Shown piece by piece: positions 645-62,669 of a stretch of DNA of 64,000 nt (position 1 is its first letter; each line of letters begins with the position of its first letter). Both the position numbers and the translations under genes were made by a program. This DNA is from Alphaproteobacteria bacterium. Its GTDB lineage: Bacteria > Pseudomonadota > Alphaproteobacteria > RF32 > CAG-239. The stretch spans positions 77,813 through 141,812 of the forward strand of contig JAZLAM010000022.1 in assembly GCA_045613125.1 (NCBI GenBank), written 5' to 3'. Below the pieces are notes generated by a model, which ran no database searches, had not been told where the DNA came from, and was given only the letters and a program-made list of their open reading frames with translations.

Positions 645-1175
645 ATGTTTAAATATCAACATGGTTTTTGTATCATTCGCTGTCAGCCTTTTCATATCGG
701 TCATGACAGATTGATTAAGAAAATGATGGAAGAATGTGCATATGGCACTGTTGTAATCGGTTCTGCTCAAGAAAGCGGAACTGAAAAAAATCCGTTACCT
801 TATTTTGTTCGCAAAAAAATGATACAAAATGTTTGGCGAAACAATGAAGCTTATGCACGCTTAAGAATCGTCGGAATAAAAGACATAAATAACATACCTT
901 GGAATATACACGTATTAGAAACTATTAAAAAAGAGCAATCAGATAAACCTAAACCTGACATAATTTATGTTGGCGATGAAAGTGAATATTTATTTTTCAA
1001 AAATGATGTTCCAAATGTTGGTATTTGTTCTCGAACCACACAAAACTTTCCGTTTTTATCAGGAAATATGGTTCGTGATATGATTGCTTTAAAAGATATA
1101 AGATATAAAGAATTTGTTCATCCGGAAAATATCGAGCTTATTGAAAAAAGCTTTTATGAGGATGAAAAAAACTAG
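645..1175 (+). CDS. NadM-type (archaeal-like) NMN/nucleotide adenylyltransferase-like cytidylyltransferase-fold protein
   Basis: MFKYQHGFCIIRCQPFHIGHDRLIKKMM matches the (R/G)FQPFH.GH nucleotide-binding signature of NadM-type NMNATs. ATG at 645 has a good RBS; the track start at 618 is a TTG extension. Confidence 0.55.
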   Translation: MFKYQHGFCIIRCQPFHIGHDRLIKKMMEECAYGTVVIGSAQESGTEKNPLPYFVRKKMIQNVWRNNEAYARLRIVGIKDINNIPWNIHVLETIKKEQSDKPKPDIIYVGDESEYLFFKNDVPNVGICSRTTQNFPFLSGNMVRDMIALKDIRYKEFVHPENIELIEKSFYEDEKN

Positions 1176-1268
1176 AAGAAACAATGGTGTTTCTTACCAT
1201 GATTTGGGTCTTGTAGGGACAGTCGAGACAAATCATAATTTAACAACCTACTGTCGAGGAGAAAAAAT

Positions 1269-2462
1269 ATGAATAAAATTAATCAAAACATTCGTTATGT
1301 TGGCACATCTGCTTTTGGCATCAGAATGCCAATTATTCTTGAAGGTGATGACATTAGCAACATCATATCAAACACATTAATTGAAGCAACAAAAACATCG
1401 TATCAACCACTTATCATAAATAATGGTGATATTATCGGCATTACGGAATCTTTCTTAGCGCGCGCACAAGGAAACTATATCACTTTAGATGATATAGCTA
1501 AAGATGTAGCAAAAAAATTTCCGGAAGGTGACGTTGCCGTTGCTTTTCCAATTCTTTCACGCAACAGATTTGCAAAAATTTTGGAAGGTATAGCAAGAGG
1601 TGTAAAAAGAAAAGTATATGTATGTCTTTCTTATCCTGCCGATGAAGTCGGAAATGCCATAATGGATGAAGATGATTTATTTAATTCGGACATTAATCCT
1701 TATACCGATATAATAACCAAACAAGATTTTCTCAATAAATTTGGGGTTTTTCACCACCCTATTACAGGGTCAGACCATATCAAAATGTATGAAAATATAT
1801 CTGATAACATTGAAGTTGTATTGTTAAACAATCCTAAGGACATCTTAAAATTTACAAAACAAATTATAGTTTCGAGTATTCATATACGTCATCGTCAAAA
1901 ACAAATCTTAATCAAAGAAGGTGCAACGGCCTATACTTTAGATGAAATTTGCAACACTCCGTCACCGACAAGAGGTTGGAGCGAATATGGGGTGTTGGGT
2001 TCTAACTATTCTGATAAAGACAGACTTAAACTATTTCCCAGAAACTCTATGGAATTTTGCCATAATTTACAGCAATTATTAAAAGAAAAAACCGGAAAGC
2101 ATATTGAAGTTATGATATATGGTGACGGTGGTTTTAAGTGTCCTAAAACCAAAATTTGGGAATTTGCCGATCCGGTTGTATCTCCTGGATATACTAAAGG
2201 ATTAGAAGGTATGCCTAATGAAATTAAAATTAAAGCTGTGGCTGATAACAATAAAGATAATCCGGAAGAAGCAATAAAAAAAGCAATAAATGATAAAAAT
2301 AAGGCAAATGGTTTTTATTCTATCGGAACAACTCCAAGACAGATAACTGATTTGTTAGGCTCTCTTTGCGATTTAACAACAGGATCCGGCGAAAAAGGAA
2401 CACCTGTTGTTTACATCAAAGGCTATTTTGATAACTACTTAACCGAAGCTCCTAAAGACTAA
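1269..2462 (+). CDS. Hypothetical enzyme with a possible CofE-like (F420-0:gamma-glutamyl ligase family) fold
   Basis: IRMPIILEGDDISNIISNTLI...NNGDIIGITESFLARAQGNY resembles the CofE N-terminal pattern (GDDLaelI...DGDVvvVt.KivSKAEGR). Weak and from memory only. At 397 aa it is longer than canonical CofE. Confidence 0.3.
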   Translation: MNKINQNIRYVGTSAFGIRMPIILEGDDISNIISNTLIEATKTSYQPLIINNGDIIGITESFLARAQGNYITLDDIAKDVAKKFPEGDVAVAFPILSRNRFAKILEGIARGVKRKVYVCLSYPADEVGNAIMDEDDLFNSDINPYTDIITKQDFLNKFGVFHHPITGSDHIKMYENISDNIEVVLLNNPKDILKFTKQIIVSSIHIRHRQKQILIKEGATAYTLDEICNTPSPTRGWSEYGVLGSNYSDKDRLKLFPRNSMEFCHNLQQLLKEKTGKHIEVMIYGDGGFKCPKTKIWEFADPVVSPGYTKGLEGMPNEIKIKAVADNNKDNPEEAIKKAINDKNKANGFYSIGTTPRQITDLLGSLCDLTTGSGEKGTPVVYIKGYFDNYLTEAPKD

Positions 2463-2473
2463 GGAGACAGAAA

Positions 2474-2992
2474 ATGAGTTTAGATCTTAAAAAGAGATTT
2501 GCAAAAATCTCTTATACCATTCGTCACAAAAAGGCTTTTCTGAAAGTTGAAAAAAAGCTCAGAGGAAAAAACACTTGGAGGGGATATTTGCATGACATCG
2601 ATAAACCTTTTTTATATCTGTCTTTATGGATAAAATTTGAAGACATTCAAAAAATTCATAGAAAACATTGTAAACATCATGTCAGAAATAATCTTACAAA
2701 AACAAAAGATGATCTGATAGATACAATTATAGATTGGGAATGCGCTCACATTACAAAGCCTGATAAACCTCTTAATGCGTATGAAACTTTATTGAAATTT
2801 TACCCTGATAAAAAAGATGAGTTTTTACCGATTATAAGAGAACTTTTACCTGAGCAAATCAAAGAAGCTTGCCTTAAGGAAAAACGCCGAGTTATCACAG
2901 AATATTTACGTTTTCAGTCAAACTCTTTACAGTCTTCGTCACTTCCTAAGGCTTCTCTTATCAAAAGTTATACAACTAATATAGGGAGGTAA
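2474..2992 (+). CDS. Hypothetical protein, candidate HD-domain phosphohydrolase; paralog of the 26411..27310 gene
   Basis: YLHDIDKP resembles the LHDIGK HD motif, with further His/Asp downstream (HRKHCKHH, DTIIDWE). The block DWECAHITKPDKPLNAYETLLKFYP is shared with DWECAAITKPDKPLNAFETALHFYP in the paralog. Confidence 0.35.
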   Translation: MSLDLKKRFAKISYTIRHKKAFLKVEKKLRGKNTWRGYLHDIDKPFLYLSLWIKFEDIQKIHRKHCKHHVRNNLTKTKDDLIDTIIDWECAHITKPDKPLNAYETLLKFYPDKKDEFLPIIRELLPEQIKEACLKEKRRVITEYLRFQSNSLQSSSLPKASLIKSYTTNIGR

Positions 2993-2995
2993 ATT

Positions 2996-3553
2996 ATGAT
3001 AATATCAGAAATAGGAGCAACAGTCTGCGGATTGTTGCAAGGAACTCTTGTGCTTTTTAATAAGCGAAGCAACTGGATTTTCTACATCGCACAAATCATC
3101 TTTTTTCTTATATTTTCATTTACTAACAAGCTTTATGGAGATGTTTTAGGTAACAGTATTTATCTTCTGTTAGGAATAAGCGGATGGATTTTTTGGAAAG
3201 ATGAAAACAAATTCCGTATAAGTATATGTTCATCAAAAGAAAGATTAGTTTATATCTCTGTCATAGTTGCTGGATCAGTAATTCTGTTTTTATTGCTTAA
3301 CAGAACGCAAGATCCCTTACCTTTTATTGACTCCGTTACAACTGCTTCATCTTTTGTGGCAACATATTATATGGTGAAAAAAAAGTTAGACACATGGATA
3401 ATTTGGTTTGTAAACGACATTTGCTATATTGCTCAATACAGTCTTTTGGAAAATCAAGCATACTATCTTATAGGCTTAAACTCTATTTGGACCTTTATGG
3501 CAATTGCTTCATTTTTTAATTGGCTTAAAATCATGAAAGGATACACAAAATGA
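2996..3553 (+). CDS. PnuC-like nicotinamide-riboside/nucleoside transporter family membrane protein
   Basis: About 6 TM helices at 185 aa. NKLYGDVLGNSIYLLLGISGWIFW fits the PnuC W-rich conserved segment (..NIYGWY.W). Translationally coupled to its neighbours. Confidence 0.5.
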   Translation: MIISEIGATVCGLLQGTLVLFNKRSNWIFYIAQIIFFLIFSFTNKLYGDVLGNSIYLLLGISGWIFWKDENKFRISICSSKERLVYISVIVAGSVILFLLLNRTQDPLPFIDSVTTASSFVATYYMVKKKLDTWIIWFVNDICYIAQYSLLENQAYYLIGLNSIWTFMAIASFFNWLKIMKGYTK

Positions 3554-4062
3554 AAAAAATATATTTTGCCGGTAAGTTTAATAAAAAGAAAGCAAAAGAC
3601 ATTTCTTTGGAAGAAGCTTTAATCGATGATTTTCGCTCCAAACTTTTAGGTAGTCCAAAATTACTGACAACTTATCAGGATAATCTTATTATAAATAATA
3701 AGTTTCAATATTTAGGACCGTTTTACTGTGAACAAGCTTCTAACGGAAACTTCACATCAACAGATTGTAATGAAGTGTTAAATGCCGAATATGAGTTTGT
3801 TCAAAAAAGTGACATTTTTGTTGTAGTTTTCGGCGAAAGTTTTTCGGTAGGCTCTGTTGTGGAACTTGGTTGGGCTCTAAACTCGGATAAAAAAATTATA
3901 ATTTTATATCAAGAAGAAAATTCTTGTTACACCATAAAATCAGAATATTGGTTTGCAATTGCCGATGCCATCAAAAAAAGCCCCAATTTAACAATATGTA
4001 AATATAAAAATTATTCTGAAATATCACTCTTAATTCATCAAATTTTAGAAAAGGAAATTTAA
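3550..4062 (+). CDS. Nucleoside 2-deoxyribosyltransferase / Rcl (DNPH1)-like Rossmann-fold N-glycosidase-family protein
   Basis: N-terminal KKIYFAGKF and DIFVVVFGESFSVGSVVELGWALNSDKKIIILY match the NDT/Rcl family, with Glu in the position of the catalytic nucleophile. ATGA overlap with the upstream gene. Confidence 0.55.
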   Translation: MKKIYFAGKFNKKKAKDISLEEALIDDFRSKLLGSPKLLTTYQDNLIINNKFQYLGPFYCEQASNGNFTSTDCNEVLNAEYEFVQKSDIFVVVFGESFSVGSVVELGWALNSDKKIIILYQEENSCYTIKSEYWFAIADAIKKSPNLTICKYKNYSEISLLIHQILEKEI

Positions 4063-4063
4063 C

Positions 4064-4885
4064 ATGAAATACAAAGAATTTGAACTGATTTTATCATCAT
4101 TTAAATGTAATAAAAATTGTCCATATTGTACCGCTAAAATAACAAAGTGGCCACACGTTAATGATAAAATTGACAATCTTGAAGAAAAACTTCAATATTT
4201 AAAAGAAAAAGATATAAGCTTCAGATATTTTATATTTTGCGGTAATGGTGAACCATCTTTGCATAGTTTTGAAACCATAAATAAAATTGTTCAAGCTACT
4301 CGAAATGTAAATATTTTTGATGAAAAACGTTTCCAATCATCAGGAAATATTTTTCTTGAACAAGAAAAATTTAATTTAATTAAAGATGATTTTACCATTG
4401 AGATAACCAGAGTGGATTTTGACAGCCAAAAAGATATGAAAGTTTTAGGATATACCCAAGACTATATTAACTCTCCTTTATTTTCTCAAGCAAATGTACG
4501 TCTAAATTATGTCATGCTGAAAAATAAAAGTTTTGATGAATATTTAGTGGAAATAAAAAAATATATCGACACATATCCAAACATCAAAACCGTAAGCTTA
4601 AAAACCTTAAATTTAAATACACTTAATGGAAAAATTGATAATCCTTATTCTCGGTGGATTCTTGAACATGCCCTAACCAAAGATGATGCAAAAAATGTTA
4701 TAGATTTTATAAGCAATCATGCAAATGTGATTCATCAAGATGATAAATTTTTTGATAGAATTGAATGGAATTATAAGGGTGTACCAATTACATTTTATAT
4801 AAAAAAATTATCTTACGGCATATCTAACATAGTATATTATGGAGGCGAACTTGTAGACTATCATCTGAATAAATTAAAGATTTAG
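4064..4885 (+). CDS. Small radical SAM enzyme (CX3CX2C; viperin/MoaA-like core)
   Basis: CNKNCPYCTAK (Cys15/19/22), FCGNGEPSL (GGEP-type SAM motif) and a downstream SSGN motif. 273 aa. Starts 2 nt after the upstream gene. Confidence 0.7.
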   Translation: MKYKEFELILSSFKCNKNCPYCTAKITKWPHVNDKIDNLEEKLQYLKEKDISFRYFIFCGNGEPSLHSFETINKIVQATRNVNIFDEKRFQSSGNIFLEQEKFNLIKDDFTIEITRVDFDSQKDMKVLGYTQDYINSPLFSQANVRLNYVMLKNKSFDEYLVEIKKYIDTYPNIKTVSLKTLNLNTLNGKIDNPYSRWILEHALTKDDAKNVIDFISNHANVIHQDDKFFDRIEWNYKGVPITFYIKKLSYGISNIVYYGGELVDYHLNKLKI

Positions 4886-57134: not shown

Positions 57135-57980
57135 TTAATCCTTAGCTATGAATACTTTACAATTTTCTTTATTATTTTCTAACAATGAATGAGGTCTAAA
57201 TCTTATATCATTAAGTGTTACCCCCCAGTGTAAATGAGGTCCGGTTGCTCTACCGGTAGCGCCGACAAGTCCTATAACATCGCCTTTTTTAACATTTTGA
57301 TCTTCATTGACTAAAACCTTACTAAGATGCGCATAAATCGTCTTTAAGCCTTGTCCATGATCAATAATTACCATATTTCCGGAATAAAAATAGTTTCCTC
57401 CGGCAAGTAAAACCTTTCCATCTCCTGAAGCTCTTATTTTTGTTCCTTCCGGTGCTGCTATATCCACACCGGTATGAGGACTTTTAGGAACATTATTGAA
57501 TATACGTTGATTACCAAAATATCCGCTTATTCTACCATCAAGCGGTAAGATAAAACCTTTTTTCCAATGTTGCGAATCTGTACCACTCTTATTTAGAGCA
57601 TTTTTCACATCCGTTCTTTCTCTTAAAATTTCACTTTCATCGTTAGCAGAAGGCGTAACCTTATTTTGCGCTACCCCTTTAATACTTTGAACATTCCAAT
57701 TATGTTTTTTTACTTTTACATCATATTGTTTAGATATATTATCATTATAAATAACTTCTAAGACCTTATTTGGGCTTTCATCGCGTGATAGCGCAATTAA
57801 AAATTCGCCTTCATCATTTACATCATACTCTTTACCGGAAAATTTTATTTTTTTAGCACCTTGCGCTATACCATATAAAAGCTCACCTTGTTCCACATTA
57901 CCGCAAAGTTCCACTTCTTTAGCAAACGTTTCGTAGCAAAATAAAAAGCTACAAATCAAACAAATCAAACTGTTCCGCAT
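57135..57980 (-). CDS. M23 family metallopeptidase (secreted)
   Basis: Signal peptide; HTGVDIAAPEGTKI, GNMVIIDHGQGLKTIYAHLS, GATGRATGPHLHWGV. Confidence 0.8.
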   Translation of the reverse strand: MRNSLICLICSFLFCYETFAKEVELCGNVEQGELLYGIAQGAKKIKFSGKEYDVNDEGEFLIALSRDESPNKVLEVIYNDNISKQYDVKVKKHNWNVQSIKGVAQNKVTPSANDESEILRERTDVKNALNKSGTDSQHWKKGFILPLDGRISGYFGNQRIFNNVPKSPHTGVDIAAPEGTKIRASGDGKVLLAGGNYFYSGNMVIIDHGQGLKTIYAHLSKVLVNEDQNVKKGDVIGLVGATGRATGPHLHWGVTLNDIRFRPHSLLENNKENCKVFIAKD

Positions 57981-59259
57981 CTCTATTCTCCACGACCTTT
58001 GTTTTTACTATACCATCAACAAAACGTATGTTTAATTCTCCACTTTTTTTTGCATGTGAAGCATCATAAAGCGTTTTAAAATGCCTATCTGTCACCCAAG
58101 CAAAGCCTCGTTTTAATACGCTATCTATAGAAACACTTTCCATTCTTGAAGACAAAGAACCTAACATTGTTTTTTGTTTCTCAACTATATTATTTATCAA
58201 ATACGGTTTTAATCCGACCAAACCTACGTTTTGCTGTTTTATTCCCATATAATTAGATATTACCATTTTAATCCGCTCGGATATATCATCAAGTTTTTGT
58301 TGATTTTCCAATATAATTTGTTCTAAATTAGGAATTCCTCTCTCTAGACCTTCAATTTTTTGTTCATATTCTTTAAGTAAACGATACATTGCATTTAAGA
58401 TTCTTCCTTGATACGAAGATAAAGCAAACATCAAATCTGATTTAACAGGAACGGCAAATTCGGCCGCACCCGTAGGCGTAGGCGCTCTAACATCTGCAAC
58501 ATAATCAATCAACATAGTATCTGTTTCATGCCCTACTGCAGAAATAATCGGTATCTGGCTGTTATAAACTGCTCTTATGACCACTTCTTCATTGAAAGGC
58601 CATAAATCTTCCAAACTTCCACCTCCTCGAGCCACTATTATAACATCGGGTCTGGGGATATTAATTATCGGAAGCTTATTAAAGCCATCTATAGCTGTTG
58701 CTATTTTATCCGCCGCCCCCTCACCTTGTACTGGTGTAGGCCAAACAATGACATGCGTCGGAAAACGGTCACTCACACGATGGATAATATCTCTAATAAC
58801 TGCCCCTGAAGGACTGGTAACCACACCTATAACTTTCGGCAAAAATGGAATTTTTTGTTTATGTGCTACATCGAACAAACCTTCTTGCAAAAATTTTTGC
58901 TTTCTTTCTTCCAAAAGCTTTAATAAAGCACCTGTTCCTGCAATTTCTAAACGCTCTATTACCAATTGATATGATGACTTTCCGGCAAAAGTAGTTATTT
59001 TTCCGGTTGCAATCACTTCCAAACCATCTTCTATTTTAACATTAAGAGCTGAAGCGACACCCTTCCAGCAAACAGCTGATAATACAGCATTAGCATCTTT
59101 TAGAGATAAATACCAATGTCCGGAATCAGCTTTTTTCGCACCAAAAATTTCACCTCTAACCCTAACCTGATTAAAAGTTGTTTCCACACATTTTTTTATG
59201 GCAAAAGAAATTTCGCTTACACTATATTCTACCAATTGCAACATACTATCCTCTATCAT
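57949..59259 (-). CDS. xseA: Exodeoxyribonuclease VII large subunit
   Basis: OB-fold N-terminus (VRVRGEIFGAKK..GHWYLSLKD) and RGGGSLEDLWPFNEE hallmark. Confidence 0.85.
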   Translation of the reverse strand: MIEDSMLQLVEYSVSEISFAIKKCVETTFNQVRVRGEIFGAKKADSGHWYLSLKDANAVLSAVCWKGVASALNVKIEDGLEVIATGKITTFAGKSSYQLVIERLEIAGTGALLKLLEERKQKFLQEGLFDVAHKQKIPFLPKVIGVVTSPSGAVIRDIIHRVSDRFPTHVIVWPTPVQGEGAADKIATAIDGFNKLPIINIPRPDVIIVARGGGSLEDLWPFNEEVVIRAVYNSQIPIISAVGHETDTMLIDYVADVRAPTPTGAAEFAVPVKSDLMFALSSYQGRILNAMYRLLKEYEQKIEGLERGIPNLEQIILENQQKLDDISERIKMVISNYMGIKQQNVGLVGLKPYLINNIVEKQKTMLGSLSSRMESVSIDSVLKRGFAWVTDRHFKTLYDASHAKKSGELNIRFVDGIVKTKVVENRDAEQFDLFDL

Positions 59260-59383: not shown

Positions 59384-59557
59384 ATGTCTAAAATTCCTTT
59401 AGTAAAACCATTAAGCAAAGTTGCCGTAGGAAGACGCCTAACCGGAATATTTAGTATATTTCAAGCATTAAGCTTTGCCTTAGCGTCTGCTTTTGTATCT
59501 GTTATTTCTAATGCAAAAGACGGGATTACCAATCAAAACGATAAAGGTAGAGAATAG
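59384..59557 (+). CDS. Small hypothetical protein (57 aa)
   Basis: ATG at 59384 with GGAGA RBS. Encodes MSKIPLVKPLSKVAVGRRLTGIFSIFQALSFALASAFVSVISNAKDG... The longer track ORF (59198) overlaps the xseA start. Confidence 0.25.
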   Translation: MSKIPLVKPLSKVAVGRRLTGIFSIFQALSFALASAFVSVISNAKDGITNQNDKGRE

Positions 59558-59565
59558 GATACGTT

Positions 59566-59979
59566 ATGGAAAAGTTTGAGATAATTCCTGCAGAATTTTA
59601 CTTTGATAAAATTGGTGTTATTGTAAAAGTAGAATTAAACGAAGACCATGTTTTTAGAGGTGAACTGGTGTATGATGGTCGCAATCAAATCATATTCAAT
59701 CGTAATGATAAGAAATTTTTTCTTCTTACCCAGATAGCACCTAATATTCGTAAACGTATATTAAAGAGCAAATATGTCACAATTGCAGAATATTTTAACG
59801 ATGAAATTATGCAGGCATATGACATAAGTGTGCGCTTGACAGATGAAATTCCAGGTGAAGATAACTACATGGAAGAAATGCAAAAATATATTGAAAAACT
59901 TAAATCAGATTTAGGTAATGAGAAGTTTAACGAATTAAAAAGACAAGCCATACATTCGTTTGACCAATTAATGCAATAG
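59566..59979 (+). CDS. Hypothetical protein
   Basis: 137-aa ORF 8 nt after the previous stop; no motif recognised. Confidence 0.3.
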   Translation: MEKFEIIPAEFYFDKIGVIVKVELNEDHVFRGELVYDGRNQIIFNRNDKKFFLLTQIAPNIRKRILKSKYVTIAEYFNDEIMQAYDISVRLTDEIPGEDNYMEEMQKYIEKLKSDLGNEKFNELKRQAIHSFDQLMQ

Positions 59980-59991
59980 AAAGTAAAATTA

Positions 59992-60171
59992 ATGATGGAA
60001 TATTTGAAAAGAAAACTTTGCAAAATTAAATCTTCTGACTTTGATAAAATCAGATTTCCACGATACTATGAGGAAAACGGTTCTTTAATCAAAGAATATG
60101 AAAATGGTGAAATGTGGGAAGTTGCTTTAGATGAAAGCCATCATGAAGTTTTATTAAAGAGGTTAAAATGA
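59992..60171 (+). CDS. Small protein (59 aa), candidate antitoxin; overlaps the downstream kinase start by ATGA
   Basis: Encodes MMEYLKRKLCKIKSSDFDKIRFPRYYEENGSLIKEYENGEMWEVALDESHHEVLLKRLK. The 4-nt stop/start overlap is typical of TA pairs. Confidence 0.3.
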   Translation: MMEYLKRKLCKIKSSDFDKIRFPRYYEENGSLIKEYENGEMWEVALDESHHEVLLKRLK

Positions 60172-60866
60172 GCAAACAAAGTTGGATGGTTATAATTGCA
60201 GGTCCTAATGGTGCCGGTAAATCTACTTTTTATCACCAGATCTTAAAAAGTGATCCTTTATTTAAAAATGCCCCTTTTGTTAATTTGGATAATTATGCTA
60301 AAGAAATGGTTACCCAAAAGGGGGGAACTACTGAGGATTATTTTATTCAGGCCGGCCGTAAAGTTCGGCAAAATATTGATAACTATTTCAAAAAAAAGAA
60401 AAGCTTTATTTATGAAACTACAGCATCTGGCATTACCCATCTTAAAACAATGGAAAATGCTCGTAATAGAGGCTACAAGGTAGCAACAATTTTTATCGGA
60501 CTTTCAAAGGTAGAACTATCTCATCTTCGTGTACAGCAGAGGGTGAATGAAGGTGGTCACAACGTATCATCAGAAGATATCGAACGCCGTTTTCCAAAAG
60601 TAATTAAAAATTTCCCCGATATGTTAGCTCGTAGCGACATTGCTGCAGTTTTTGACAACTCTGGTAAAGATCCCTACAAACTCATATTTTTGATGGATAA
60701 GTATCATTTTCGTGTGTTCTATTCATATCCTCGTTGGGTTAAGGAAGCAACCAAGGGAAGAAACACCAATAAAAACTTTATTTTTGTTAATGCAAATGAT
60801 ATTAAAGGGAACAAAAAAGATTTCTTTACTAAAATTGCCAAGCGACTATTTTTAAATACAAAATAA
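60168..60866 (+). CDS. Zeta-toxin-like P-loop kinase (COG4185/AAA_33-type)
   Basis: Walker A IIAGPNGAGKST; FIYETTASG; RVQQRVNEGGHNVSSEDIERRFPK matches the zeta/PezT-family RV.QRV..GGH.VPE..I.RRY signature. Confidence 0.55.
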   Translation: MSKQSWMVIIAGPNGAGKSTFYHQILKSDPLFKNAPFVNLDNYAKEMVTQKGGTTEDYFIQAGRKVRQNIDNYFKKKKSFIYETTASGITHLKTMENARNRGYKVATIFIGLSKVELSHLRVQQRVNEGGHNVSSEDIERRFPKVIKNFPDMLARSDIAAVFDNSGKDPYKLIFLMDKYHFRVFYSYPRWVKEATKGRNTNKNFIFVNANDIKGNKKDFFTKIAKRLFLNTK

Positions 60867-60884
60867 AAATTAAATTACCTGATT

Positions 60885-62669
60885 TTAATTTTTATTATTT
60901 TCCTGCATCAACATATCTCTTTCAGCTTTTAAATTAAGATAGTTTTGATAATCGGTATCATCAGCCATATTTTTTTCAAGCTTAATTTTATATTCATTGA
61001 TATCTCTGTTCAATTCTTTTATTTGGACTGCTATCATTAAACAATCTATTTGGCGCTTGATATCATTAATACGCGGATTTTGAGATTTTAACATCCCTAT
61101 TTCCCACAAAGAATCAATCTTATCTTCAAAACCGAATAACTTTAACTGTCTCAACAATTCTGTAGATAAAATTTCCGGATTTTCATGAAAAATATCAATT
61201 ACACGTTGCATCATATCGTACAAATTAAATTTTGAGATATCAAACATTAAAATTTTTTCTTCAAAATCTCCTATCAATTCAGGAAATTGTATCATACTTG
61301 CTAAAATAAAACGAATATCAATATCAGCCAATACCGGTTTAATGGTATTAGACTTTCTCTTATAAATATTTTGTTTTACAGCATATGTTTTTAACGCACC
61401 TTTTCCGAAAGTTTCATATATCCGTTTTTTCATCTCCTGCACATAATAGCTTCTAACTTTTTCATCACCTATTTTCGACACTTCTTCCATTAGCGTTTTT
61501 TCTATTAGTGCTTTTTGCTCTGGGGTAGATGATGGCTTATCTTTAATATTTTTATCCCATAAAAGTTGCATCAGTGGAGTAGTATGTTGCATCAATGATA
61601 AAAATTCATCCTTACCTTTGAGTTTTAGGAATTCATCCGGATCAAGCTTCTCAGGTAAAAACATAAATTTTAAAGAATGACCGGCTTTTAATATGGGCAA
61701 AGCTCTTTCAACTGAACGTAGCGCAGCCTTCTGACCTGCATTATCGCCATCAAAACAAAGAATCGGTTCTGGCACAATTTTCCATGCTAGCTTAATTTGT
61801 TCTTCAGTTAAAGCTGTTCCCATAGGAGCAGCGGCATAACCAAAACCAAATTTATCCAGTGCTATAACATCCATATAACCTTCACATATAAGAAAATTTC
61901 TTGCCTTATATCCTTCATCTTTAGCATAATTGATATTATAAAGAGCTCTTCTTTTATTAAAAATAGGTGTTTCAGGAGAATTTAAATATTTAGGTTGCCC
62001 ATCACCCATAATACGGCCACCAAAGGCCACCACTCTAGACTTACTATCAAGTATCGGAATAATAACTCGGTCTCTAAAAAAATCATGAGCCAATCGATTT
62101 TGGGTGTCAGGAGTGACTATCAATCCTAATTCAGACATATCATGTTCACTTACACCTTTGGCAGCAAGATATGCTTTAAGACCATTATTGTTAGGGGCAT
62201 AACCTAAACGAAATTTTTTAATCAATTCGTCATCTATTCCGCGTCCATAAAAATATTCTAAACCATGAGCACCAACCGGCATATACAAATTTTTTTCATA
62301 ATATGCCGTTGCCAGTTCCATAATATCATACAACGACTGTTGCTTTTCTTGTTCTGCTGTTTTTTCTTTTGAAAACTTAGGCATAGGTAAACCAGCTTTT
62401 CGGGATAATTTTTCTAAAGCATCTATAAACGGAAGATTATTTGCCTCCATTTCAAACTTGACGATATCACCGTGAGCTCCACACCCGAAACAATGATAAA
62501 AACCTTTAACCTCATTTACAGTAAAAGATGGTGTTTTTTCGTTATGGAAGGGACAAAGTCCTAAATATTCACGACCTTTGCGGGTAAGCTTTACCTTTTC
62601 AGACACAACATCTGCAATAGAAACCTTATCCCTTAACTCTTCTATAAATTTTTGTAAATTATTTTCCAT
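60885..62669 (-). CDS. dnaG: DNA primase
   Basis: Zinc finger CPFHNEKTPSFTVNEVKGFYHCFGCGAHGD, TOPRIM domain (ICEGYMDVIAL, FDGDNAGQKAA) and a C-terminal helicase-interaction region. Confidence 0.9.
   Translation of the reverse strand: MENNLQKFIEELRDKVSIADVVSEKVKLTRKGREYLGLCPFHNEKTPSFTVNEVKGFYHCFGCGAHGDIVKFEMEANNLPFIDALEKLSRKAGLPMPKFSKEKTAEQEKQQSLYDIMELATAYYEKNLYMPVGAHGLEYFYGRGIDDELIKKFRLGYAPNNNGLKAYLAAKGVSEHDMSELGLIVTPDTQNRLAHDFFRDRVIIPILDSKSRVVAFGGRIMGDGQPKYLNSPETPIFNKRRALYNINYAKDEGYKARNFLICEGYMDVIALDKFGFGYAAAPMGTALTEEQIKLAWKIVPEPILCFDGDNAGQKAALRSVERALPILKAGHSLKFMFLPEKLDPDEFLKLKGKDEFLSLMQHTTPLMQLLWDKNIKDKPSSTPEQKALIEKTLMEEVSKIGDEKVRSYYVQEMKKRIYETFGKGALKTYAVKQNIYKRKSNTIKPVLADIDIRFILASMIQFPELIGDFEEKILMFDISKFNLYDMMQRVIDIFHENPEILSTELLRQLKLFGFEDKIDSLWEIGMLKSQNPRINDIKRQIDCLMIAVQIKELNRDINEYKIKLEKNMADDTDYQNYLNLKAERDMLMQENNKN

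Follow-up and report, generated by a model that had tools for sequence, protein, structure and literature searches.

In a 64,000-nucleotide stretch of contig JAZLAM010000022.1 (assembly GCA_045613125.1) from an Alphaproteobacteria bacterium, referred to below as the window, a gene for a 59-residue protein directly precedes a gene for a 232-residue P-loop kinase, and we consider this pair to be, on balance, probably a toxin-antitoxin (TA) module of a non-canonical zeta/PezT type. Its assignment as a type II module is based on the small gene lying upstream, translational coupling, strict co-inheritance and differing chromosomal sites, as well as on the pairing of a basic enzyme with a partner whose conserved domain is acidic, on the occurrence of relatives in plasmid stability regions and on the fact that those members of the kinase family that have been tested are toxins. 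An earlier, sequence-only reading of this DNA had reported an overlap of the two open reading frames (ORFs) through ATGA, and both ORFs, as well as the tetranucleotide (60168-60171) common to the partner stop and the kinase start, were confirmed; a Shine-Dalgarno-like GAGG lies 5 nt ahead of the kinase ATG.

Comparison of the 232-residue protein with Pfam revealed PF06414 (Zeta_toxin) as the best family, with a score of 47.1 bits versus a gathering threshold of 22.3 (E = 2.5e-12, residues 4-152), followed by AAA_33 with 35 bits, while homologs of the kinase likewise carry precomputed PF06414 matches. The proposed membership in the zeta/PezT family was thus borne out. Searches of NCBIfam, PADLOC and PHROGs returned P-loop-level matches only, and sequence searches of the PDB were weak, the best full-length matches obtained with a 26-sequence profile being Pnkp1 (E = 2.4e-4) and PezT (E = 0.055). 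An AlphaFold2 (AF2) model and a residue-conservation table were then built on 26 homologs sharing 33-83% identity with the kinase. The model was confident (predicted local distance difference test [pLDDT] 84.6, predicted template-modeling score 0.80), and a Foldseek comparison with the PDB placed PezT (2p5t) first, followed by AvrRxo1 (4z8t, TM-score 0.67), a putative kinase (2rhm), and zeta (3q8x, 1gvn). The predicted fold is that of a zeta-type phosphotransferase: 176-188 residues aligned with zeta and AvrRxo1 versus 153 with polynucleotide kinase, and gluconate and shikimate kinases scored 8-11. No grouping with such housekeeping kinases was seen, as both Pfam and Foldseek favored zeta.

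The residues that are invariant or nearly so in the homologs comprise Walker A (G12-T20), D41, G63, Y82-E83-T84-T85, R121, R125, G129-G130-H131 and D163-N164-S165. Walker A, of the form GxxGxGK[ST], reads G12-P-N-G-A-G-K18-S19-T20 and is invariant. So is D41, which in a phmmer alignment corresponds to D66 of PezT, the second Asp of its IIDGD sequence; D66 of PezT and D67 of zeta are the catalytic Asp that deprotonates the substrate hydroxyl (PMC6362051). Both R121 and R125 are invariant as well, and R125 aligns with the lid Arg of PezT 'TLIRYE', this alignment being weak (E = 0.11) and the equivalence provisional. The lid arginine (R158 in zeta, R116 in Rv0366c) serves both catalysis and antitoxin contact (PMC6362051). 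The motifs quoted in the sequence-only reading, GPNGAGKST (residues 12-20) and RVQQRVNEGGHNVSSEDIERRF (residues 121-142), are indeed present. The catalytic residues appear to be intact and, because they are retained together with the family and fold, the protein is probably an active phosphotransferase of the Zeta_toxin family. However, the label 'UDP-GlcNAc (UDP-N-acetylglucosamine) kinase' that the same reading had attached to it has no support, because the GTXR motif that binds UDP-GlcNAc is absent: the kinase reads E83-T84-T85-A86-S87 where PezT has E-G-T-L-R, and 'ETT' is kept throughout the subfamily.

These comparisons also bear on the alternative that the protein resembles polynucleotide or RNA (tRNA) 5'-OH kinases and acts either in RNA repair or as a toxin directed at nucleic acids, which we regard as quite improbable. 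Zeta_toxin outscores AAA_33 by the bit scores given above, and PezT and AvrRxo1, ranked first by Foldseek, align over more residues than polynucleotide kinase does. In T4 Pnk, an Arg is found three residues after the catalytic Asp (D-x-x-R). This acceptor-binding motif is missing from the kinase, which reads D41-N-Y-A-K at a position that varies in the 26 homologs; furthermore, no gene for a phosphatase, ligase or Hen1 accompanies it. The alternative concerns the substrate and is compatible with a TA architecture.

The 59-residue partner gave no match in Pfam, NCBIfam, PADLOC, PHROGs or the PDB. Its N-terminal helix is basic (M-x-EYLKRK) and leads into a four-strand domain of acidic character, which bears the motif [FY]P-x-YYEENG-x-LIKE-x-x-G, and the signature of the family is M-x-EY-[LF]-KRK, about 12 variable residues, and [FY]-P-x-YYEENG-x-LIKE-x-x-G-x-k-x-x-V-x-LD. 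The isoelectric point (pI) of the conserved domain is 4.9 versus 10.0 for the kinase, which is strongly basic (net charge of about +20). In the AF2 model (pLDDT 84), a helix (residues 2-10) is followed by strands at residues 24-28, 31-35, 41-46, and 52-57, and this predicted fold has no structural neighbor in the PDB. The epsilon-type label given to the small ORF had to be abandoned, as it has no Pfam match and is predicted to fold into one helix and four strands. Identity with either epsilon (PF08998) or PezA was rejected, the protein having neither the helical bundle of the former nor the helix-turn-helix (HTH) and helical toxin-binding domain of the latter. An origin from MORN/YwqK-like or other repeat proteins was also discarded: the long profile matches (P0146, P0152, P0153) are leucine-rich repeat, BNR or other repeat proteins that match over about 20 residues only, and we treated this likeness as motif resemblance only.

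Since the ORF is short, has no known family in the databases and comes from a genome rich in A+T, it might be a chance or mis-called frame next to an orphan zeta homolog. The conservation data refute this view, to which we give hardly any credence. A first search yielded six homologs of the partner with 56-98% identity, and 22 columns are invariant across 7 partner homologs, and a profile compared with 1.84 billion cluster representatives matched 29 clusters, nearly all of 58-63 residues. We also compared 13 distinct loci (L001, L002, L005, L007, L009, L010, L011, L092-L096, and the fragment L097) with kinases 37-83% identical to that of the window, and in all 13 a partner homolog of 58-75 residues is placed directly upstream of the kinase. 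In a comparison with L096, a locus of 83% identity, the ratio of nonsynonymous to synonymous substitution rates (dN/dS) was 0.075 for the partner and 0.089 for the kinase. As homologs precede the kinase in every related locus examined and dN/dS is so low, the ORF is more than a chance frame and, judging by this conservation and by the confident AF2 model, is a real coding gene. The doubt that the small ORF might lack conservation was thus dispelled.

The pair has the architecture of type II systems, i.e., two adjacent, co-oriented and overlapping genes, the small one upstream, that are inherited together in 13 of 13 loci. The partner and kinase genes overlap by 1, 4, or 8 nt or are separated by 2 or 17 nt in the related loci, and the flanking genes differ at almost every one of them: nuoL/M and PHP; LptD-SurA-KsgA with an integrase nearby; GyrA and UvrA; radical SAM; an iron-containing alcohol dehydrogenase; CarD/META; GcrA; MipZ. 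The gene order of the window (xseA, 57-residue ORF, 137-residue ORF, partner of 58 residues in the relative, kinase, dnaG) is common to the near relative L096 only. The sequence-only reading had correctly placed two small plus-strand ORFs ahead of the pair and xseA and dnaG at the flanks of the block, but its view of an insertion between two conserved neighbors did not hold, as dnaG was found near xseA in none of 80 loci from other species within the upstream sequence (up to 6 kb). Judged by xseA, the nearest species other than that of the window (L012; 72% identity) has homologs of the 57- and 137-residue ORFs beside xseA and neither partner nor kinase genes at this locus. The cassette occupies different chromosomal sites in different genomes which, together with its absence from the closest different species, is as expected of a unit that is gained or lost independently.

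The 57- and 137-residue ORFs form a conserved pair of their own, divergent from xseA, with identities of 81% and 84% and dN/dS of 0.12 and 0.04, respectively, in L096, and identities of 56% and 70% in L012. Because both persist beside xseA in L012 without the kinase pair, they are separate conserved genes outside the kinase module, and a four-gene module was ruled out. The proteins of 137-138 residues encoded just upstream of the pair in L001 (5350-5766) and L011 (4359-4772) are alike each other and unrelated to the 137-residue ORF of the window; that of L001 has a sub-threshold match to SMI1_KNR4, a SUKH immunity protein (19.4 bits versus a threshold of 25.4), and this upstream protein may link the cassette to immunity-gene clusters. 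In L009 (5726-6568) and L010 (5726-6565), an ORF of 279-280 residues with faint transglutaminase/peptidase-like matches follows the kinase on the same strand after an 8-nt gap and could be a third component in that lineage. As judged by eye, L012 carries near xseA, at 1173-3746 and about 4090-4170, a 434-residue ORF resembling the large subunit of phage terminase, a 235-residue CI/LexA-like repressor ORF and an apparent tRNA gene, so that the place held by dnaG in the window may be taken by the remnant of a prophage in L012.

Relatives of the pair are also found on plasmids. A tblastn search revealed homologous kinases of at most 38% identity on 600 plasmids, annotated as 'zeta toxin family protein' or 'AAA family ATPase', whereas only four phage records matched, all weakly, and a phage origin of the cassette was rejected. 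In E. coli, Klebsiella, and Salmonella, conjugative plasmids of 41 kb carry, between kleE and parA/parB, an 83-residue hypothetical gene that is overlapped by the start of the kinase gene; in Paraburkholderia pBPHYT01 an 85-residue hypothetical overlaps the kinase by 4 nt, and in Zymomonas pZM33 a 78-residue hypothetical overlaps it, beside a DUF1778-GNAT pair. The plasmid partners, all 'hypothetical protein' with no Pfam domain, have the core motif P-x-YY...G-x-[IV]-IKE-Y-P-D-G-R-K..V, and the plasmid-type partner is carried by about 88 plasmids. When the alphaproteobacterial and plasmid partner families were aligned with hhalign, a probability of 95.9% was obtained (E = 6e-9, 38 columns), and on this profile evidence the C-terminal domain of the 59-residue protein is homologous to the partners of the plasmid kinases. 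The pairs of NZ_CP142409.1, NC_010679.1 and pZM33 resemble that of the window in their kinases (35-38% identity; GPNGAGKS/T, ETT, and RVxxRVxxGGHxV), in the small upstream gene overlapping the kinase start and in this homologous domain. However, the plasmid partners are longer (78-87 residues), with an acidic N-terminal region replacing the short basic helix, and the plasmid kinases, of about 195 residues, are without the C-terminal tail of about 40 residues. The 2.7-kb plasmid pGOX5 of Gluconobacter oxydans (NC_006676.1) carries a plasmid-type partner homolog (919-1164, minus strand) with no kinase annotated beside it, its other three annotated genes being RepL and a MazE/MazF pair; the homolog may be an orphan 'anti-addiction' copy. 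The Y-P-D-G-R-K hairpin of two plasmid partners (L098, 2250-2501; L099, 2220-2477) weakly matches the CPAP/Tcp10_C G-box, a single-layer beta-meander repeat, with all scores below threshold; we take this likeness, too, as motif resemblance only, and it agrees with the beta-meander predicted for the 59-residue protein.

Among the pairs that have been tested, the nearest is that of Mycobacterium tuberculosis, Rv0366c-Rv0367c (PezAT-Mtb), which, by its published description, resembles the window pair in having a short Zeta_toxin-family kinase with P-loop and catalytic Asp kept and no GTXR (PMC6362051). Rv0366c, in which the Asp, Arg and His are kept, is growth-inhibitory (bacteriostatic) and is rescued by its non-epsilon upstream partner (PMC6362051). 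Both kinases have an R-x5-H lid motif (R116/H122 in Rv0366c, R125/H131 in the window), as compared by published residues, and in both pairs the upstream partner is neither epsilon nor PezA. The partners themselves differ: Rv0367c has 129 residues, with a ribbon-helix-helix (RHH)/ParD-like N-terminus and a helical C-terminus, whereas the window protein is a 59-residue helix and four-strand sheet without a DNA-binding motif. The kinases of the epsilon/zeta (pSM19035) and PezA/PezT (Streptococcus pneumoniae) systems share only 10-20% identity with that of the window, and, unlike these systems, the window pair has no GTXR motif, no omega regulator, and a partner that is neither a three-helix epsilon nor an HTH-containing PezA. 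The best TM-score to the kinase model (0.67, 188-226 aligned columns) was that of AvrRxo1, the NAD 3'-kinase of the Xanthomonas AvrRxo1-Arc1 pair, in which Arc1 is an antitoxin/chaperone. This pair likewise joins a zeta-fold kinase, here with a substrate other than UDP-GlcNAc, to a small partner, Arc1 being an inhibitor; however, AvrRxo1, a type III effector, is larger (about 330 residues crystallized) and has 14% identity to the window kinase, and Arc1 is unrelated in sequence to the 59-residue protein. According to a 2023 survey, most PezT/Zeta homologs, including those on most plasmids carrying such genes, are without a recognized antitoxin, and outside the canonical systems only EzeT, ng_zeta1, and PezT-Mtb have been tested (PMC10532202). 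Among the titles and abstracts listed for TA systems of Acinetobacter and Zymomonas plasmids, none describes the partner family, and a literature search for COG4185 gave no match.

If the pair is a TA module, the free kinase would phosphorylate an essential metabolite or nucleic acid and thereby arrest growth, while the 59-residue protein, made in step with the kinase, would bind and silence it as a type II antitoxin and, if epsilon and PezA are a guide, may do so by blocking its site for the nucleotide or the substrate. Toxicity of the kinase, its neutralization through direct contact with the partner, the nature of its substrate, and a possible part in addiction or in defense against phages are inferred only. 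Several observations weigh against this reading. No HTH, RHH, or AbrB motif was detected in the partner with Pfam, NCBIfam or the AF2 model, and no third, omega-like gene is conserved at the related loci; since the partner has no recognizable DNA-binding domain and there is no such third gene, type II autoregulation has no visible basis, although DNA binding by the basic helix at the N-terminus of the partner is conceivable. The G+C content of the block (0.30-0.36) is the same as that of its flanks, so that a compositional island was ruled out and nothing points to recent transfer. The pair is represented by no PADLOC model, with matches at the P-loop level only, and was not assigned to a known defense system. 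An RNA antitoxin or other noncoding RNA was dismissed, as no Rfam family matches the region.

Some of these observations would also suit a non-toxic kinase, engaged in metabolic or repair phosphorylation, with the 59-residue protein as its regulatory or specificity subunit (an activator, adaptor, or substrate carrier). Such a reading, which we hold to be unlikely, is favored by the absence of the substrate motif of true zeta toxins, by the absence of a DNA-binding domain or any sign of autoregulation, by a G+C content matching that of the host, and by the presence of the pair in many gut Alphaproteobacteria under purifying selection, but it is disfavored by the variable location of the pair and by the plasmid context.

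The preferred TA reading makes the pair a variation on a well-known theme, and public annotation already assigns the kinase to its known family. The partner family and its tie to this kinase clade on both chromosomes and plasmids, however, are unnamed in the libraries searched and the literature found. The clade extends from chromosomes of uncultured gut and rumen Alphaproteobacteria to conjugative plasmids of Enterobacteria, Burkholderia, and Zymomonas, and the locus and its relatives suggest that one zeta-like clade without a recognized antitoxin has a specific partner family, conserved and as yet unnamed. If this is confirmed, many 'orphan' zeta-like genes would gain their missing antitoxin, a determinant of stability on plasmids that are common in the clinic would be explained, and a compact pair would become available for identifying the substrate of zeta kinases without GTXR. 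As the kinases are very basic, are without GTXR and are as similar to polynucleotide kinases as to zeta, a target other than UDP-GlcNAc is possible. We put forward, tentatively and as a conjecture that may well turn out wrong, that the 59-residue protein and its plasmid relatives of about 80 residues constitute an antitoxin family that is both new and widespread and has a small beta-meander domain (P-x-YY...G-x-IKE-y-P-D-G-r-k) as its core. Such a family would neutralize 'orphan' zeta-like kinases that form a large clade in Proteobacteria and may poison the cell by acting on something other than UDP-GlcNAc, with NAD-like nucleotides or RNA as possible targets. If true, both a new mode of inhibition and a new target would be added to the zeta superfamily.

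Table 1. Positions of the kinase-partner pair, its flanking genes, and candidate control elements in the window
Feature	Position	Strand	Remarks
59-residue ORF (partner, candidate antitoxin)	59992..60171	+	read from sequence; alternative start at second ATG, 59995
232-residue ORF, Zeta_toxin-family P-loop kinase (candidate toxin)	60168..60866	+	read from sequence
Translational-coupling junction	60159..60171	+	GAGG 60159-60162; kinase ATG 60168-60170 overlaps partner TGA 60169-60171
Sigma-70-like promoter match, TTGACC-18-TAAAAT	59960..59989	+	10/12 match; weak evidence
A+T-only inverted repeat I3	60862..60896		13-nt arms, 9-nt loop; between convergent kinase and dnaG stops
119-residue ORF ahead of the pair (conserved part 57 residues)	59384..59557 (57-residue part)	+	hydrophobic, membrane-like
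137-residue ORF ahead of the pair	59566..59979	+	no family match
xseA	57949..59259	-	one flank of the block
dnaG	60885..62669	-	other flank of the block

Candidate control elements are listed together with the genes in Table 1. At 59984-59997, the -10 hexamer of the promoter-like match, TAAAAT, ends 2 nt ahead of the tandem ATG ATG of the partner gene, some homologs of which begin at the second Met, and a transcript from this match, if used, would be leaderless or nearly so. Such matches numbered 8 in the region versus 9.9 expected from shuffled sequence, i.e., not above chance, and comparison of the window with L096 showed that the geometry of the match is not kept. The inverted repeat beyond the kinase is a possible weak bidirectional terminator, a terminator scan having made no call at this position. 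As regards flanking repeats or target-site duplications, only short A+T-rich repeats at chance level were found at the block. On the other side of the locus, the 3' end of xseA overlaps the next, M23-peptidase-like ORF (57135-57980) by 32 nt (57949-57980), and the gene order xseA, M23 peptidase, uppP is kept in most close relatives.
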